This document shows, in pieces, positions 183 through 6,982 of a stretch of DNA of 9,208 nucleotides; the stretch's first letter is position 1; the number at the start of each line of letters is the position of its first letter. The notes under the pieces were generated by a model. It saw only the letters and a program-made list of their open reading frames with translations. It was not told where the DNA came from and did not search any database. Source of the stretch: a virus (taxonomy: Duplodnaviria > Heunggongvirae > Uroviricota > Caudoviricetes); the IMG/VR virus record IMGVR_UViG_2526164634_000013, positions 1 to 9,208 of that record; one strand, given 5' to 3'. A program made the position numbers and the translations under genes.

Positions 183-1412
183 ATGACCACTATTACCAAA
201 GAACGTATTGAATTGTTCATTAAAAATCCGCTTGAAAACGGGCTTACCCGTGGTGAACAAATGGAACTGGCACGGATTGCGCTGGCATCGCTGGAAGCAG
301 ATCCAGTTAAACGAGTTAACTCAGATCAGATGCGCCGAGTCTGCTTAGAAGCTAATCGCCATTTAGATAAATATGACGCGATGGCGAAAGAGGTAAATAA
401 GTTGCTTGGACGCATCGCCCCGCCAGCGCCGGTAGTGCCGGAAGAAGCAACTCCGGAAAACGTAGAAATGCTCTCTGGCTATGTTTCCACGTACAAATTA
501 ACCGATAGCGAGCGCGATATTGCTACCGAAATATGGAACGCCTGCCGCGCCGCCATGCTTCAGTCCGGAAACTTTCGGGAAAACAAGAATTCGTCAACCA
601 ATAATTTTCGGGAAATCGCGGAAACGTCAACCAACTATCCGGCAATTCCTAGTGAGGTGTTGTCCGCAATCCTGAAGGTTGCCAGGATTCGTGCCGATTT
701 CGATGATTTTGACGGTGACAGGCGAGGTATCGGTGATTGTCTGGATGAGGCTGAGCAAGAGCTTATCGTTACCATTAACAAATATGCCAGTCAGTTGGCA
801 GCAGAACCGATAGCGACTAATGACGTTCGAGAGCAGCAGACAGCCGTTCCGCCAGTTCCGGAAATACAGGATGATGTCGCGCAAGCAATTGAAAATCTCA
901 AGCAGAAGTTAGTGGAATGCAATCGCTATAACTACTGCGCAGATGCAGTTAAAGGCGTAGAGGATGCCTGCCACGCTGCCATGCTTCAGGGTAGCCAACC
1001 TGTAAGCCAAACTTACAAGTTGCCAGTTAATACACCTTGCCAAGATGCGCCAGCCCATATCTGGCTGCAAACGGCTGGAGTATGGCCAGAAGATGGCGAG
1101 TTAAGCGAATTAACGTGGTGCAGCCACAATCAGCACCATGATGACACGCTATATGTTCGAGCTGACCTTGTGAATGGCAACTCTCCGGTAACTCCGGATG
1201 GTTGGATAAGCTGTAGTGAGCGAATGCCGGATACCAAAACAGCCGTTCTTGTTGCCAGGGAGTTTGACAGGAAAGGTGACTGGCGAATGAAATGGGCGAC
1301 TTACATCCCGGGTCATCCTGACGCTAATGATGGGTGGATAATACCTGGTGCGTCGTGGATACCATCACACTGGATGCCTCTACCAGAACCGCCGCAGGAG
1401 GTGCGCCAATGA
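183..1412 (+). CDS. Prophage protein with C-terminal DUF551-like domain; N-terminal ~300 aa of unknown function
   Basis: 409-aa ORF with ATG at 183 preceded by AAGGAG (171-176). The C-terminus (…WISCSERMPD…WIIPGASWIPSHWMPLPEPPQ) matches, from memory, the W-rich DUF551 signature ending in HWMPLPEPP seen in enterobacterial prophage proteins. No database search was run. Confidence 0.75.
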   Translation: MTTITKERIELFIKNPLENGLTRGEQMELARIALASLEADPVKRVNSDQMRRVCLEANRHLDKYDAMAKEVNKLLGRIAPPAPVVPEEATPENVEMLSGYVSTYKLTDSERDIATEIWNACRAAMLQSGNFRENKNSSTNNFREIAETSTNYPAIPSEVLSAILKVARIRADFDDFDGDRRGIGDCLDEAEQELIVTINKYASQLAAEPIATNDVREQQTAVPPVPEIQDDVAQAIENLKQKLVECNRYNYCADAVKGVEDACHAAMLQGSQPVSQTYKLPVNTPCQDAPAHIWLQTAGVWPEDGELSELTWCSHNQHHDDTLYVRADLVNGNSPVTPDGWISCSERMPDTKTAVLVAREFDRKGDWRMKWATYIPGHPDANDGWIIPGASWIPSHWMPLPEPPQEVRQ

Positions 1413-1492
1413 ACTGGCCTGAAGCATTTGCAATTACAGGCGTTGCTATGGCTATAGCTTTTTTAGTATATGTTATTTGTCGGTGGGGGTAA
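1409..1492 (+). CDS. Micro-ORF, 27-aa hydrophobic peptide (MNWPEAFAITGVAMAIAFLVYVICRWG), putative single-pass membrane peptide
   Basis: ATG at 1409 overlaps the TGA of the upstream gene (ATGA coupling). AGGAGG at 1396-1401 sits 7 nt upstream. A hydrophobic stretch of about 20 residues is followed by RW. Too short for the supplied ORF track; translated by hand. Confidence 0.4.
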   Translation: MNWPEAFAITGVAMAIAFLVYVICRWG

Positions 1493-1527: not shown

Positions 1528-1632
1528 ATGTCGGATGATATATCACTGGCAATGGAAGGTGCGCTGGCTGTTGTTGCTGTTGTGGGCGTTTACTGCCTGG
1601 TTGTGTTTTTGATGGATCGACTAGGGAACTGA
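1528..1632 (+). CDS. Micro-ORF, 34-aa hydrophobic peptide (MSDDISLAMEGALAVVAVVGVYCLVVFLMDRLGN), putative single-pass membrane peptide
   Basis: ATG at 1528 with AAGGAGGG at 1517-1524. Acidic N-terminus followed by a ~20-residue hydrophobic helix. Not in the ORF track; translated by hand. Confidence 0.45.
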   Translation: MSDDISLAMEGALAVVAVVGVYCLVVFLMDRLGN

Positions 1633-1673: not shown

Positions 1674-1702
1674 TTTGCGGTAAAGCGAGAGTTAAGTAGA
1701 AT
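1674..1702 (+). promoter_or_regulatory. Candidate sigma70 promoter of the hok transcript (-35 TTTGCG/TTGCGG, -10 TAGAAT at 1697-1702)
   Basis: TAGAAT matches the -10 consensus at 5 of 6 positions, with a 16-17 bp spacer to a weak TTG-containing -35. The predicted +1 near 1707-1709 coincides with the 5' arm of the long-range complementarity to the mRNA 3' end. Confidence 0.4.
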
Positions 1703-1878
1703 TGCAGCGGGTGCTTGAGGCTATCTGTCTCAGGCATGAACACCAAAAGGCAGATAGAGAAAAGCCCCAGTTAACATTATGCGTCCTGCAAGACGCTTAA
1801 CATTAATCTGAGGCCCAATCTATGTCTCACAAATGTAGGTTAGCCTCTTACGTGCCGAAAGGCAAGGAGAAGCAGGCT

Positions 1879-2034
1879 ATGAAGCAGCAAAAGGCGATGT
1901 TAATCGCCCTGATCGTCATCTGTTTAACCGTCATAGTGACGGCACTGGTAACGAGGAAAGACCTCTGCGAGGTACGAATCCGAACCGGCCAGACGGAGGT
2001 CGCTGTCTTCACAGCTTACGAACCTGAGGAGTAA
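1879..2034 (+). CDS. hokD: Hok/Gef-family type I toxin (51 aa, small membrane-depolarising peptide)
   Basis: The product MKQQKAMLIALIVICLTVIVTALVTRKDLCEVRIRTGQTEVAVFTAYEPEE has the Hok/Gef hallmark: N-terminal TM helix and conserved TRKDLCEV…R…G…EVA.F.AYE. From memory it matches E. coli HokD/RelF very closely. The family call is secure; the exact paralog name is by recall only. An in-frame upstream ATG at 1822 with GAGG SD gives the 70-aa track ORF. Confidence 0.85.
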   Translation: MKQQKAMLIALIVICLTVIVTALVTRKDLCEVRIRTGQTEVAVFTAYEPEE

Positions 2035-2082
2035 GAGACCAGGCGGGGGAGAATCCCTCGCCACCTCTGATGTGTCAGGCAT

Positions 2083-2097
2083 CCTCAACGCACCCGC
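2083..2097 (+). promoter_or_regulatory. 3' fold-back element of hok mRNA (fbi-like), complementary to the predicted 5' end at 1707-1720
   Basis: 1707-1720 (GCGGGTGCTTGAGG) pairs antiparallel with 2083-2097 (CCTCAACGCACCCGC): 8 bp plus 6 bp with one bulged C. This is the architecture described for hok mRNAs, where the 3' end pairs with the 5' translational activator region. Confidence 0.5.
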
Positions 2098-2103
2098 ACT
2101 TAA

Positions 2104-2128
2104 CCCGCTTCGGCGGGTTTTGTTTTTT
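2104..2128 (+). terminator. Rho-independent terminator ending the hok transcript
   Basis: Hairpin CCGC-TTCG-GCGG (2105-2116) followed by GTTTTGTTTTTT. Confidence 0.75.
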
Positions 2129-2200
2129 CCTGGCATTCTGGTTTACAATTCGCACACCAGCCTGAACAACTGGCACCTGCTGCGCCAGCAGAGACAACCG

Positions 2201-2479
2201 ATGGCGCACGATACCAAATTACACAATTCTGATGATTCTGCCGTCTTTGCCAGCAGGCACGGGCGGCGTTCCCGCACTTTCAAATCTGACTGGTTCCAGC
2301 ATCCCCCATGCACTGAAGAACAGGCCGAGTGGCTAATTCAGTGCTACCGCAGACACGGATACGAGATTAAGAAAGCCCTCAGCCTCGATTATCGTCACTG
2401 GATAATCTCCGTCAGGCTTCCTTACTCCGAACGCCCACCGCGTCCGTCCCGCACATTCCAGCAACGCATCTGGAGGTAA
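2201..2479 (+). CDS. Small basic hypothetical protein (92 aa); Rem-like by position only
   Basis: ORF with ATG at 2201 chosen because the track start at 2072 would overlap the hok terminator. The SD is weak (GAGA). The TAA stop at 2477-2479 sits 1 nt before the GTG start of the next gene. Sits where rem sits between hokD and ydfU in the Qin prophage, as I recall that order. Confidence 0.45.
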   Translation: MAHDTKLHNSDDSAVFASRHGRRSRTFKSDWFQHPPCTEEQAEWLIQCYRRHGYEIKKALSLDYRHWIISVRLPYSERPPRPSRTFQQRIWR

Positions 2480-2480
2480 C

Positions 2481-3527
2481 GTGCGGGTATTACTTCGACC
2501 TGTTCTGGTACCGGAACTCGGGCTGGTGATCGTTAAGCCGGGCCGTGAATCCATGCCGGTATTCCACAATACCCGGGTACTGGTGGAGCCGGAACCGAAA
2601 AGCATGCGTAATCTGTCGTCCGGGGTCGTTCCTGCCGTTCGCCAGCCGCTGGCGGAGGATAAATCATTACTGCCATTTTTCAGCGACGAACGAGTGATTC
2701 GTGCTGCTGGTGGCGCTGGCGCATTGTCTGACTGGTTACTGCGCCATGTTAAATCCTGCCAGTGGCCACACGGCGATTATCACCACAGTGAAACCGTCAT
2801 TCACCGTTATGGTACCGGCGCAATGGTGTTGTGCTGGCACTGCGACAACCAGCTGCGCGACCAGACCTCCGAATCACTCGGGCAACTTGCTCACCAAAAC
2901 CTGTCTGCATGGATGATTGACGTCATACGCCATGCAATGAATGGCTCGCAGGAACGGGAATTATCGCTGGCTGAATTATCCTGGTGGGCGGTCCGCAATC
3001 AGGTGGCGGACGCGCTACCGGAAGCGGTATTACGTCGTTCGCTGGGGTTGCGTGCGGAAAAAATCCGCTCAATGTACCGTGAAAGCGACATCGTACCGGG
3101 AGAGCAGACCGCCACCAGCATACTGAAGCAGCGCACAAAAAATCTTGCGCCGCTGCCTCACGCCCACCAGCAAAACCCGCCACAGGAAGAGACGGTGGTC
3201 AGCATTGCCGTTGATCCTGAGTCTCCGGAATCTTTCATGAAACGACCTAAACGTCGCCGCTGGGTTAACGAGAAATACACACGCTGGGTGAAGACACAGC
3301 CGTGTGCGTGTTGTGGTAAGCCAGCCGACGATCCCCATCACCTGATTGGTCATGGTCAGGGCGGAATGGGGACAAAATCTCACGATATTTTCACGCTACC
3401 GCTGTGTCGGGAGCATCACAACGAGCTTCATGCGGATCCTCTGGCGTTCGAAGAAAAGTATGCTTCTCAGGTTGATTTAATTTTTCGTTTTCTTGATCAC
3501 GCCTTTGCAACTGGCGTGCTTGGGTAA
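2481..3527 (+). CDS. ydfU: DUF968 (YdfU-like) prophage protein with C-terminal Cys/His HNH-like motif
   Basis: 348-aa ORF with GTG start at 2481 and GGAGG at 2472-2476. The C-terminal segment CACCGKPADDPHHLIGHGQGG…LPLCREHHNELH resembles a zinc-binding HNH-type module. The length matches the roughly 349-aa YdfU of Qin as I recall it; the family call is by recall. Confidence 0.75.
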   Translation: MRVLLRPVLVPELGLVIVKPGRESMPVFHNTRVLVEPEPKSMRNLSSGVVPAVRQPLAEDKSLLPFFSDERVIRAAGGAGALSDWLLRHVKSCQWPHGDYHHSETVIHRYGTGAMVLCWHCDNQLRDQTSESLGQLAHQNLSAWMIDVIRHAMNGSQERELSLAELSWWAVRNQVADALPEAVLRRSLGLRAEKIRSMYRESDIVPGEQTATSILKQRTKNLAPLPHAHQQNPPQEETVVSIAVDPESPESFMKRPKRRRWVNEKYTRWVKTQPCACCGKPADDPHHLIGHGQGGMGTKSHDIFTLPLCREHHNELHADPLAFEEKYASQVDLIFRFLDHAFATGVLG

Positions 3528-6244: not shown

Positions 6245-6320
6245 GGCCCTTTAGCTCAGTGGTGAGAGCGAGCGACTCATAATCGCCAGGTCGCTGGTTC
6301 AAATCCAGCAAGGGCCACCA
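6245..6320 (+). tRNA. ileZ: tRNA-Ile2 (anticodon CAU, lysidine type), ileZ-like
   Basis: Hand-folded cloverleaf: acceptor GGCCCTT/AAGGGCC, D-stem GCTC/GAGC, anticodon loop CTCATAA, T-loop TTCAAAT, encoded CCA. Closely resembles E. coli tRNA-Ile2 as recalled. Confidence 0.8.
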
Positions 6321-6327
6321 TCACATA

Positions 6328-6404
6328 CCGCCATTAGCTCATCAGGAAAGAGCGCCAGCCTTCGAAGCTGGCTGCGCGGAGTTCGGGTCCCCGAAGGCGG
6401 TCCA
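6328..6404 (+). tRNA. argN: tRNA-Arg (anticodon UCG as read from sequence), argN-like; atypical stems
   Basis: Perfect anticodon stem CCAGC/GCTGG with loop CTTCGAA, D-stem GCTC/GAGC, encoded CCA. However there is one A-A mismatch in the acceptor stem, one A-C mismatch in the T-stem, and the T-loop is TTCGGGT (G at position 58). Confidence 0.55.
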
Positions 6405-6417
6405 TTATCTGTATCCT

Positions 6418-6494
6418 GCGTTGTTAGCTCAGCCGGACAGAGCAATTGCCTTCTAAGTAATCGGTCACTGGTTCGAATCCAGTACAACGCGCCA
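6418..6494 (+). tRNA. argO: tRNA-Arg (anticodon UCU), argO-like
   Basis: Acceptor GCGTTGT/ACAACGC, D-stem GCTC/GAGC, anticodon stem ATTGC/GTAAT with loop CTTCTAA, T-arm ACTGG-TTCGAAT-CCAGT, encoded CCA. Confidence 0.82.
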
Positions 6495-6533: not shown

Positions 6534-6730
6534 AAATGTCTCACAATTCAGACGGTTGACAGTTGTCTGTTTTGCGGGGAGTTTGTTAAAAGAAACTGGC
6601 ATGGTGAATCCCCCTGTGCGGAGGGGCAATCAGCGAGTAGGTATATGGGATAATCGCGGATTCAGGTGCTGGTACTGAATTCACCGGGAGGCACCCGGCA
6701 CCATGCAATGGCACATAGCGCCACTCTCCA

Positions 6731-6755
6731 GCCCCTCTCCGGAGGGGCTTTCTTA
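6731..6755 (+). terminator. GC-rich hairpin with T-rich tail (terminator-like) in the tRNA-to-esterase interval
   Basis: Stem GCCCCTC / GAGGGGC with loop TCCG, followed by TTTCTTA. Shares the core CGGAGGGGC with a second hairpin at 6611-6626. Confidence 0.4.
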
Positions 6756-6760
6756 TGGAC

Positions 6761-6788
6761 AAAAAAATCCCGCGCTGGGAGACGCGGG
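6761..6788 (-). terminator. Minus-strand intrinsic terminator-like element (hairpin CCCGCG/CGCGGG followed on the minus strand by U7)
   Basis: On the + strand this reads AAAAAAAT, then CCCGCG, an 8-nt loop, then CGCGGG. On the minus strand that is hairpin plus T-run. It sits back-to-back with the + strand hairpin at 6731-6755. Confidence 0.35.
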
Positions 6789-6982
6789 CGGCAAGGAATA
6801 AACATCAAAACGTGAAGTAATATTTCAGCTGGCGAATAATATCCGACAGTAATCACTCTGCGCAATAGCGCGGCCTTTTTCGTATTGCGGACTGTTGTCT
6901 CTCTTCTGCCATTGTCCTGTAACTTCCGGACTTCAGCCCGCTCCTCATTTTACTCACAATATTATCCCGGCCGGGAGGATTC

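Follow-up and report, generated by a model that had tools for sequence, protein, structure and literature searches.

Positions 1675–2128 of the window, by which we mean the whole 9,208-nt stretch of DNA analyzed here, very probably hold a type I toxin–antitoxin cassette, an intact hok/mok/sok unit of the hokD allele. It is carried by a lambdoid prophage, whose nin region has the cassette between the replication genes on one side and Q on the other. The initial annotation had described a complete hok-family toxin unit, and Pfam, Rfam, RNA folding and covariation all agree on that point. The features it listed are present at the positions given, while two components had been overlooked: the mok leader open reading frame (ORF) and the Sok gene. 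The cassette itself is ordinary and already known, being found and annotated as hokD in most Escherichia coli genomes. Its elements, several of them predicted, are as follows.

1675–1702, plus strand: hok/mok mRNA promoter, with a weak −35 box TTGCGG (1675–1680), a 16-nt spacer and a −10 box TAGAAT (1697–1702)
1709–1720, plus strand: tac element at the predicted mRNA 5′ end, GGGUGCUUGAGG (position 1 of RF01794; pairing with 2083–2095 in the minimum free energy (MFE) fold; covariation)
1721–1757, plus strand: leader 5′ hairpin, nt 13–22 with 40–49 (Rfam match, MFE)
1761–1768, plus strand: ucb, or anti-SD, box AAAGCCCC (partner of the mok Shine-Dalgarno (SD) sequence in the full-length fold, and of tac in the open Rfam structure)
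1810–1813, plus strand: mok SD, GAGG (GAGG in 35 of 35 loci)
1822–2034, plus strand: mok leader ORF, 70 codons; being in frame with hok, it would encode a Hok extended at the N-terminus
1756–1830, minus strand: predicted Sok antisense RNA, about 70–75 nt, antisense to the SD and start codon of mok (from its fold; ends inferred)
1837–1865, minus strand: predicted Sok promoter, −35 TTGCCT (1865–1860), 17-nt spacer, −10 TAACCT (1842–1837)
1864–1869, plus strand: hok SD, AAGGAG, read from the sequence, overlapping the Sok −35 box and kept in 31 of 35 loci
1879–2034, plus strand: hok toxin ORF, 51 aa
2042–2062, plus strand: 3′ UTR stem-loop, predicted terminal stem of the 3′-processed, active mRNA (MFE, conservation of helix 15)
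2083–2095, plus strand: fold-back inhibitory element fbi, CCUCAA(C)GCACCC, with C2089 bulged (MFE, covariation, duplex search)
2102–2128, plus strand: intrinsic terminator, 7-bp stem, TTCG loop and T-run

Identity of the toxin gene and limits of the predicted transcript

The 51-aa ORF matches the Pfam profile PF01848 (HOK_GEF) over its whole length, positions 1–42, with 82.9 bits against a cut-off of 22. Its DNA shows no difference from K-12 hokD (b1562), and RefSeq names the identical protein HokD. The NCBIfam subfamily model NF007279 (Hok family toxin) scores 48.5 bits, below its curated cut-off of 73; it is evidently a narrower model, with the HokC/HokD branch outside its range, and family membership is therefore based on Pfam and Rfam. 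The Rfam model RF01794 matches 1709–1884 on the plus strand from model position 1 to 157 of 157, with 121 bits (gathering score 59; E = 7e-28). Though named ‘sok’, this model aligns to the strand of the hok mRNA, and its match stops at the AUG of hok. With the ORF intact and all family elements found, the locus looks intact and undecayed in its sequence, as had been supposed. Decayed copies differ visibly: one carries indels in fbi and in the ORF (L047), a second has lost the 5′ motif (L005) and in a third an insertion breaks the 3′ hairpin and deletes fbi (L015).

The −10 box reads TAGAAT at exactly the positions first proposed. With one exception, the complete loci shown from other genera have a TAnnnT hexamer 6 nt 5′ of a conserved GGG(T/C)GCTT; the sequence farther 5′ is unrelated in them, yet the position of the −10 box is kept. 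A simple sigma-70 consensus scan included neither the hok nor the sok promoter among its calls, because one hexamer in each, the −35 box of hok and the −10 box of sok, matches the consensus at only 3 of 6 positions. Consequently, both promoter calls are based on homology and conserved position. The transcript’s +1 is placed by homology at about G1709, where the RF01794 match begins, 6 nt downstream of the −10 box conserved across genera; the R1 numbering G4/C5/T6 served for this placement (PMC9841398). At the other end, a strong terminator had been proposed near 2104–2128, and a terminator scan calls the same element, with a stem at 2102–2119 and a T-run up to 2128. The same terminator is kept in K-12 Qin.

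Long-range pairing between the mRNA’s 5′ and 3′ ends

The annotated complementarity between 1707–1720 and the 3′ element CCTCAACGCACCCGC at 2083–2097 is real, and comprises 14 bp with C2089 as a bulge. With +1 at G1709, only 12 of these 14 bp (1709–1720 with 2083–2095) would lie inside the transcript. RNA folding, one of the checks suggested at the outset, recovers them: the unconstrained MFE fold of 1709–2128 pairs nt 1–12 with nt 375–387 (−169.7 kcal/mol, z = −6.8 against shuffles). A duplex search over 9186 22-nt segments of the plus strand found that −21.5 kcal/mol, the energy of the observed duplex, is reached by eight overlapping segments only, all containing fbi, which is the unique best partner on that strand. 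When fbi is constrained to stay unpaired, the fold is 14.5 kcal/mol less stable and tac pairs with ucb, as in the published open form.

Covariation was the second suggested check, and we examined it in an alignment of 35 loci from seven genera (Escherichia, Shigella, Kluyvera, Pseudocitrobacter, Citrobacter, Pantoea and Photorhabdus), in which the complementarity is kept by compensatory changes. At the tac/fbi pair 4/405, 22 loci have U-A and 11 have C-G; at the pair 12/396, 19 have G-C and 5 have A-U. Pairing in the helix reaches 90.5% despite the bulge-less Photorhabdus group being one column off register; MAFFT had shifted the fbi of that group by one column, so that pairing is under-counted at columns 396–401. 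Per-locus duplex folding, added to offset this misalignment, gives 11–14 bp in 22/22 distinct 5′/3′ combinations. Across the whole mRNA structure, 32 pairs have changed on both sides (21.3 ± 2.3 in shuffles), and 86.6% of cells are paired compared with 40–47% when the partners are slid by 1–3 columns. Cognate 5′ and 3′ ends bind more strongly than non-cognate ones (−20.4 versus −18.4 kcal/mol), a modest gain because most tac/fbi positions are invariant; the covariation signal is limited to a few positions (4, 10, 11 and 12).

These data bear on the possibility that the complementarity is a chance match beside a decayed hok remnant, to which we assign a vanishingly small probability. The shortness of the helix, 12–14 bp, is all that speaks for it. 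It is contradicted by the pairing’s presence in the MFE fold with its low z-score, and by an ORF that is intact amid every family element, whereas decayed copies look different. The status of fbi as best partner among 9186 segments, together with the compensatory changes from U-A to C-G and from G-C to A-U, rules it out.

Leader RNA and the predicted Sok antisense RNA

The leader contains elements through which the mRNA’s 5′ end may adopt alternative pairings. The first 35 nt are predicted to fold into a hairpin of nt 3–13 with nt 19–29 (−16.9 kcal/mol), so that nt 19–29 (1727–1737), part of the 5′ leader hairpin, are also the local partner of tac in a predicted nascent, metastable hairpin. 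The leader hairpin itself (helix 2) is 92.9% paired in the 35 loci, with three pairs changed on both sides. The Rfam consensus structure pairs nt 1–8 with nt 54–60 (tac/ucb), and the ucb box is 99% identical in the 35 loci. In the full-length MFE fold, nt 57–60 of ucb pair instead with nt 102–105, and the mok SD is thereby sequestered. Helix 4 is 88.9% paired, with six pairs changed on both sides. The mok start column reads ATG in 33/35 loci; mok is in frame with hok in 24/35 and in the +1 frame in 9/35.

At the level of sequence, a cis-encoded antisense Sok gene is found opposite the mok translation start. A 75-nt Sok is predicted to fold into a single-stranded 5′ tail, a long hairpin and a U-rich tail (−30.7 kcal/mol, z = −5.4). 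Its promoter stretch has the same sequence as the corresponding stretch of the hokW-sokW locus of Sp5, and its −35 box is TTGCCT or TTGACC in 35/35 loci. In Sp5, sokW acts from its own promoter and is reported to be complementary to the hokW 5′ UTR over 71 nt (PMC8621323). Among close copies, the target of the Sok 5′ tail (1815–1836) has 70% identity, as against 95–100% in its flanks. This hypervariability may reflect selection for Sok/hok pairs that do not cross-react; from 2 to 11 hok/sok copies coexist in each E. coli genome.

The 3′ stem-loop and the proposed open form of the mRNA

A second 3′ hairpin just after the stop codon had been noted at 2042–2062. It is present, with 8 bp (one of them G.U) and a 5-nt loop, and is more than a second hairpin, being the counterpart of the terminal stem of the processed R1 mRNA. 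That stem in R1, G345–C358, is required for the stability of the truncated mRNA and shields the processed form from 3′ exonucleases (PMC9841398). The corresponding helix 15 is 97.5% paired in the 35 loci, with two pairs changed on both sides.

The tac/ucb pairing is the MFE structure of the first 60 nt, and of the full-length RNA with fbi held single-stranded. It is absent from the ViennaRNA MFE structure for every 3′ end between 2060 and 2081; these RNAs retain the local 5′ hairpin and a paired mok SD, and enforcing the tac/ucb form on the truncated RNA is 9 kcal/mol worse. The open conformation is therefore not reproduced thermodynamically. The tac/ucb pairs are invariant in the 35-locus alignment and give zero covariation signal. 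In addition, an exonuclease removing fbi would need to get past the canonical terminator hairpin 3′ of it, and activation may be slow or endonuclease-dependent.

Genomic context and distribution

The cassette occupies a standard nin-region slot of lambdoid phages, Qin among them, in which the genes run hok, (rem), 92-aa ORF, DUF968, rusA, Q. The initial annotation had placed the cassette in a non-Qin context, which holds for the upstream neighbors (relBE in K-12) but not for the slot or the downstream synteny, both of which are shared. We reject ‘non-Qin’ in any deeper sense, given the shared gene order and the 84% identity of 2184–3527 to the ydfU region of Qin. The Qin-type relB-relE-hokD arrangement, leaderless and with relE directly 5′ of the hok SD, is not found in the window. 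Homology to K-12 Qin starts at about 1864, where the window carries a full 170-nt leader. K-12 Qin retains only the equivalent of about 1864–2129, its 5′ half missing because relBE replaces everything 5′ of about 1864. Among 5426 complete E. coli genomes, an intact leader occurs in 4293 and the K-12 type relE-hokD junction in 1173. The window thus has the ancestral, common and un-rearranged arrangement, and K-12 Qin represents a rearranged minority.

Proposed mechanism and role

We propose a mechanism whose steps are drawn by homology to R1 hok/sok and Sp5 hokW-sokW, following the scheme in PMC9841398. An mRNA of about 420 nt would start near G1709 and end at the terminator at 2128, with the nascent transcript holding its 5′ end in a local hairpin. 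In the full-length RNA, tac (1709–1720) would pair with fbi (2083–2095) and ucb would hold the mok SD; both pairings appear in silico here, and the former also by covariation. This RNA would be stable, untranslated and a poor target for Sok. Slow trimming of the 3′ end to the stem-loop at 2042–2062 would remove fbi, whereupon the 5′ end would re-pair with ucb and free the mok translation start, and mok translation would presumably be coupled to that of hok. Sok, a short-lived RNA of about 70 nt running on the minus strand from about 1830 to about 1756, would anneal to the processed mRNA over the SD and AUG of mok and lead to its decay by RNase III. Hok, probably a 51-aa inner-membrane peptide that depolarizes the cell, would then be made only upon loss of Sok. 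For the copy in the window, expression, processing and toxicity are predictions. Its role would most likely be prophage retention, or an aid to lysis and phage release upon induction, as reported for hokW-sokW.

The behavior of the truncated RNA is consistent with a different outcome, in which the cassette is intact in sequence and physiologically silent: a stable mRNA and Sok together would yield too little Hok, and the locus would persist by hitch-hiking on prophage modules. The truncated-RNA folds leave the mok SD closed, the terminator hairpin 3′ of fbi may hamper 3′ trimming, and the chromosomal hokA, hokB and hokC would offer a parallel, being reported, in the summary given by a preprint, to lack post-segregational killing (bioRxiv 10.1101/2025.08.07.668861). 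We nonetheless consider silence somewhat unlikely. All regulatory elements are kept with compensatory changes in seven genera, which argues for selection on regulation beyond mere carriage. Moreover, the near-identical hokW-sokW is active: Hok is made on mitomycin C induction, and deletion of hokW-sokW halves phage release (PMC8621323).

That same halving of phage release weighs against a mainly anti-phage role by abortive infection, where a lytic phage would stop host transcription, Sok would decay and Hok would kill the cell; the measured effect in the closest characterized relative favors release of its own resident phage (PMC8621323). Nor is hok enriched near defense systems (bioRxiv 10.1101/2025.08.07.668861). 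This role is decidedly unlikely in our judgment, even though defense genes are common in prophages, hok is enriched in prophages (bioRxiv 10.1101/2025.08.07.668861) and high-copy R1 hok/sok lowered T4 plating and plaque size, according to a passage in PMC8621323.

Returning to a role in retention or release, we tentatively suggest, while regarding it as unlikely, that transcriptional interference lets the cassette sense the induction of its prophage. All lambdoid contexts that we examined have hok pointing the same way as the early-right (pR to Q) operon, into which the Sok promoter consequently fires head-on. If the suggestion is true, antiterminated read-through from pR would occlude the weak Sok promoter, or collide with it, while adding hok-sense RNA, so that Sok would drop and Hok would be made just before lysis. 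It would also account for the unexplained RecA-dependent loss of sokW RNA reported for Sp5.

Significance

As a discovery the cassette is minor. Few RNA-regulated toxin systems have been studied as thoroughly as hok/sok, and tac/fbi covariation has been in print since 1997 (cited in PMC9841398). The enrichment of hok in prophages is likewise documented, and thousands of genomes carry this allele under the annotation hokD. The locus is useful as a clean positive control, with a long-range RNA interaction recognizable from raw sequence by a first-stage reader. It also makes plain that K-12 hokD, the familiar version, derives by truncation from an intact and widespread prophage cassette; anyone who takes K-12 as the reference for regulation or A-to-I editing of hokD needs to bear this in mind.

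Comparison with known systems

The prototype is hok/sok (parB) of R1 and F-type plasmids, whose architecture we read directly in an IncF plasmid locus (L057) and which fits the Rfam model. It shares with the window the −10 box, a +1 at GG(G)YGCUUGAGG, the 5′ hairpin, ucb, an opposite-strand Sok with its −35 box over the hok SD, mok, hok, a GC-rich 3′ stem-loop, fbi and a terminator. The two Hok proteins are only about 43% identical, and mok is in the +1 frame in R1 but in frame in the window. In R1, tac is shorter by one nucleotide, and the tac/fbi helix has about 7 bp, compared with 12 bp and a bulge in the window. R1 is plasmid-borne and acts in post-segregational killing; toxicity, 3′ processing and RNase III cleavage of the Sok duplex have been demonstrated there (PMC9841398).

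The chromosomal hokC (gef)/mokC loci (L014–L021) belong to the same sub-family, with 80–82% protein identity. In most copies mok is in frame; tac is the same as in the window and fbi differs by one G.U wobble, whereas the Sok-hairpin region is 18–20 nt shorter. These loci occupy a chromosomal, non-prophage site, and the decayed copy L015 described above is the K-12-like one.

K-12 Qin hokD (relF) has an identical hok ORF, and its SD, 3′ stem-loop, fbi and terminator are about 99% identical to 1864–2129 of the window. Downstream, DUF968 (ydfU) and Q are common to both, although in K-12 rem is inserted after hokD. The K-12 copy lacks the promoter, tac, ucb, Sok target and mok start, all present in the window, because relBE abuts the hok SD; this copy is described as inactivated by genomic rearrangement (PMC12214031).

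The hokW-sokW locus of the Stx2 phage Sp5 (VT2-Sakai) is likewise in a lambdoid prophage, and has 93% DNA identity to the window over 1665–2105. It has the same sequences for tac, fbi, the mok SD and the sok promoter, and mok is again in frame. Both Hok proteins have 51 aa and differ only at four C-terminal residues (VDYESEK in HokW, TAYEPEE in the window), and several differences fall in the target region of the Sok 5′ tail. The Sp5 locus is without a canonical terminator after fbi, unlike the window, and adjoins the 8.4-kb orf71 outside the nin region, while the window’s cassette lies within it. For this relative, the toxicity of HokW and the antitoxin activity of sokW have been demonstrated experimentally (PMC8621323).

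A complete hok cassette with its antisense gene

By direct sequence reading, we found every element that the initial annotation had listed for a complete hok unit, at the positions it had given. Its list stands but omitted two family-defining parts that are also present, the mok leader ORF overlapping hok and the gene for the cis-antisense RNA Sok.

Elements of the hok cassette, read from the sequence (for the terminator, also a terminator scan)
1675-1680, plus strand: weak hok -35 hexamer TTGCGG, 16 nt upstream of the -10 box
1697-1702, plus strand: hok -10 box TAGAAT
1810-1813, plus strand: mok Shine-Dalgarno (SD) sequence GAGG
1822, plus strand: ATG of mok, in frame into hok, giving a 70-aa extended Hok
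1865-1860 and 1842-1837, minus strand: Sok promoter, -35 TTGCCT and -10 TAACCT, 17-nt spacer
about 1830 to about 1756, minus strand: predicted Sok RNA
1879-2034, plus strand: hok ORF, 51 codons
2017-2022, plus strand: UACGAA over the hok Tyr47 codon
2042-2062, plus strand: 3′ hairpin
2083-2097, plus strand: 3′ element CCTCAACGCACCCGC
2102-2119, plus strand: stem of a textbook intrinsic terminator, with a T-run to 2128

The 51-codon ORF encodes a Hok/Gef peptide, with 82.9 bits for Pfam PF01848 (cut-off 22). Rfam model RF01794, which is named 'sok' yet models the hok mRNA leader and stops at the hok AUG, spans 1709-1884 on the plus strand end to end (121 bits, E = 7e-28), with G1709 as its first matched position. 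In an IncF plasmid hok locus, the equivalent of the window's 5′ end, GGCGCTTGAGG, lies 6 nt after a TATGAT box, and in plasmid R1, which carries the prototype hok/sok, G4, C5 and T6 are counted from the equivalent first G (PMC9841398). Together, the Rfam match, this spacing and the R1 numbering set the +1 at about 1709.

Long-range pairing of the mRNA ends

The initial annotation proposed that the two ends of the hok mRNA pair with each other. Positions 1707-1720 are complementary to 2083-2097 over 14 bp, with C2089 bulged; given the +1 at about 1709, the outermost two base pairs (1707-1708 with 2096-2097) probably lie outside the RNA. The unconstrained minimum free energy (MFE) structure of 1709-2128 pairs nt 1-12 with nt 375-387, closing the molecule (-169.7 kcal/mol, z = -6.8); none of 100 shuffled sequences matched this stability. 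The 14-nt 5′ end was also duplexed with every 22-nt segment of the plus strand, and the observed energy was reached only by eight overlapping segments containing 2083-2095. A chance match between the two ends is ruled out by this z-score and by the unique duplex partner on the plus strand.

A scan of one genome per species yielded 53 related loci, from which 35 complete, non-identical mRNA-equivalent stretches, from +1 to just beyond the fold-back inhibitory element (fbi, 2083-2095), were aligned with MAFFT. They come from Escherichia, Shigella, Kluyvera, Pseudocitrobacter, Citrobacter, Pantoea and Photorhabdus. Between the predicted 5′ end (tac, 1709-1720) and fbi, pair 4/405 is U-A in 22 loci, C-G in 11, U-G in one and unpaired in one; pair 12/396 is G-C in 19 loci and A-U in 5, pair 10/398 is A-U in 22 and G-C in 2, and pair 11/397 alternates among G-U, G-C and A-U. 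Overall pairing in the helix reaches 90.5%, despite a bulge-less Photorhabdus arm that MAFFT set one column out of register, and when the two ends of each locus are folded against each other, every one of the 22 distinct combinations forms 11-14 bp. Position 4 covaries with fbi, yet it is bulged in the alternative helix that tac forms with the anti-SD box (ucb, 1761-1768) in the Rfam structure.

When the window's MFE structure is mapped on the alignment, 32 pairs have changed on both sides, compared to 21.3 +/- 2.3 in column shuffles (0/500 reach 32), and 86.6% of cells are paired; displacing the partners by 1-3 columns lowers this share to 40-47%. For the 3′ stem-loop (2042-2062), the paired share is 97.5%. 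The proposed pairing is thus upheld by the unconstrained fold, the best plus-strand partner and covariation, and the compensatory changes on which it had been staked are present across the 35 loci. Covariation of tac and fbi across the family has already been published (Gultyaev et al. 1997, as cited in PMC9841398).

In Kluyvera loci L028-L031 and Photorhabdus loci L033 and L039, a T-run directly follows fbi with no obvious local hairpin, whereas the window has a separate canonical terminator. One possibility is that these mRNAs terminate on the long-range tac/fbi helix followed by Us.

Closed and open states of the mRNA

In R1, a metastable hairpin forms at the 5′ end of the RNA as it is being made; in the full-length RNA, tac/fbi closes the molecule and ucb sequesters the mok SD. 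Slow 3′ trimming then leaves a truncated RNA with a protective stem-loop at its end, which refolds to tac/ucb and exposes the mok SD. Sok binds this refolded RNA, the duplex is destroyed by RNase III, and Hok is produced only upon loss of the unstable Sok (PMC9841398).

For the window's mRNA, the first 35 nt are predicted to form a local hairpin (-16.9 kcal/mol), and in the full-length fold tac/fbi forms and nt 57-60 pair with the SD (nt 102-105). Forcing fbi to be single-stranded costs 14.5 kcal/mol, and tac then pairs with ucb precisely as in the Rfam model. RNAs truncated anywhere within 2060-2081 retain the local hairpin and the sequestered SD in their MFE structures, and the tac/ucb columns are invariant among the 35 loci, providing no covariation information for that helix. 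On this evidence the closed state is well supported, and we infer the open state from homology only. Since trimming must pass the strong terminator hairpin 3′ of fbi, activation may be slower. Every defining feature of the family that sequence analysis can address is present. Only two checks fell short: the score against a narrow NCBIfam subfamily model stayed under its cut-off, and thermodynamics did not predict the open form.

Variation in mok and Sok, and a conserved editing motif

The predicted Sok RNA folds into a long hairpin between a single-stranded 5′ tail and a U-rich tail (-30.7 kcal/mol, z = -5.4). In Sp5, an Stx2 phage carrying hokW-sokW, the Sok promoter hexamers match those of the window exactly, as does everything between 1834 and the hok AUG; its sokW has its own promoter and 71 nt complementary to the hokW 5′ UTR, and neutralizes HokW (PMC8621323). 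The reading frame of mok relative to hok varies among the 35 loci. In 24 the two share a frame (offset 57 nt). Nine have mok in the +1 frame (offset 58), the arrangement of R1, and two of these nine lack its ATG; the other 2 have mok in the +2 frame, where it stops after 19 codons. Close relatives therefore differ in whether mok yields an N-terminally extended Hok or a Mok peptide unrelated to it.

Positions 1815-1836, the target of the predicted single-stranded Sok tail, double as coding sequence for the mok N-terminus. They are hypervariable, with 70% pairwise identity among seven close copies (including two, L004 and L012, from one genome, CP178302.1) compared to 95-100% in flanking elements. 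This variability may reflect selection against cross-talk among co-resident hok/sok copies. In the least ordinary reading, the cassette would sense induction via head-on transcriptional interference with the Sok promoter, and copies sharing a genome would be selected to have orthogonal Sok tails; both ideas are speculative.

UACG is the A-to-I editing motif of TadA. At the Tyr47 codon it is invariant in 35/35 aligned loci, and neighboring codons vary; editing there would recode Tyr47 to Cys. Low-level editing (6%) is described for K-12 hokD (PMC12214031).

Prophage context and the Qin locus

The window belongs to a lambdoid prophage. Its genes run from a DUF551 protein through two small hydrophobic ORFs, hok, a 92-aa ORF, DUF968, RusA and antiterminator Q to a DNA methylase, three tRNAs, an STnc100-like RNA, a SASA-family esterase and the start of the lysis region, where the esterase's name and the lysis assignment (from a holin) follow the annotation of the best-matching E. 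coli prophage, H1.

Features around the hok cassette
183-1412, plus strand: DUF551 protein, a single 409-aa ORF, domain at residues 340-405
1409-1492, plus strand: hydrophobic 27-aa micro-ORF upstream of the hok promoter, one predicted membrane-spanning stretch
1528-1632, plus strand: hydrophobic 34-aa micro-ORF directly upstream of the hok promoter, one predicted membrane-spanning stretch, a RefSeq hypothetical protein
6245-6494, plus strand: three tRNA genes (anticodon CAT, Arg-TCG, Arg-TCT) downstream of Q and the methylase
6570-6760, plus strand: strong Rfam match to the sRNA STnc100 (RF02076), 139 bits (gathering score 47)

Where the window has one DUF551 ORF, the closest E. coli prophage has a pseudogene and, apart from it, a 112-aa DUF551 gene, and the region aligns only in parts, a mosaic variation directly upstream of the hok cassette. 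Neither micro-ORF has a Pfam or NCBIfam match; by eye, a relative of the 27-aa one abuts the hokW promoter in Sp5. The tRNA cluster is of a type typical of Stx-type lambdoid phages, and its CAT tRNA is called Met by ARAGORN and tRNA-Ile by RefSeq. The STnc100 match lies just downstream of this cluster and upstream of the esterase gene. In H1, iraM follows the STnc100 region; no alignment to H1 was found for 6750-6981, so iraM appears to be absent from the window.

The initial annotation described a non-Qin context. K-12 Qin is ~99% identical to the window only over about 1864-2129 (hok SD, ORF, stem-loop, fbi and terminator), with relE upstream of that stretch, and its ydfU region is 84% identical to 2184-3527. 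In phages PPompW, HannyBb and Evi, hok occupies the identical slot and orientation, with replication genes on one side and rem, the 92-aa ORF, DUF968, rusA and Q on the other. Consequently, the upstream difference holds but the slot does not differ: the locus sits in the same syntenic slot as in Qin, without the relBE rearrangement. Some K-12 hok loci are thought to be inactivated by genomic rearrangement (PMC12214031), hokD among them by elimination.

Among 5426 complete E. coli genomes, and at a coverage of at least 80%, the leader-plus-start query (1690-1900) was found in 4293, the relE-hokD junction in 1173 and a 601-nt query (1600-2200) in 2594, where the annotation is hokD. Phage records use the names MokW, HokD, gef and 'host killer'. 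In Kluyvera sp. CHPC 1.2972 (L027), the hok leader is replaced by upstream sequence common to E. coli loci L006 and L043. Judged from the shared alignment and not from a direct comparison of L006 with the K-12 locus, L002, this appears to be the K-12-type relE-hokD junction, in which case the rearranged cassette has crossed between genera.

Comparison with known systems

Two tiny contigs (L017, 275 bp; L022, 431 bp) labeled Acinetobacter idrijaensis and Xanthomonas pisi encode Hok proteins 96-100% identical, and a record named Actinobacillus phage vB_Apl-pPE4 (H31) has 97.8% DNA identity; all three are probably E. coli or coliphage contamination or mislabeling. Enrichment of hok in prophages has already been reported (bioRxiv 10.1101/2025.08.07.668861). 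The locus in the initial annotation was correctly recognized and well described, and is already known. Its closest characterized relative is hokW-sokW of Sp5, with 93% DNA identity and identical regulatory motifs, though in a different part of its phage. The R1-type Hok has about 43% protein identity to the window's Hok, in a locus with the same order of elements.
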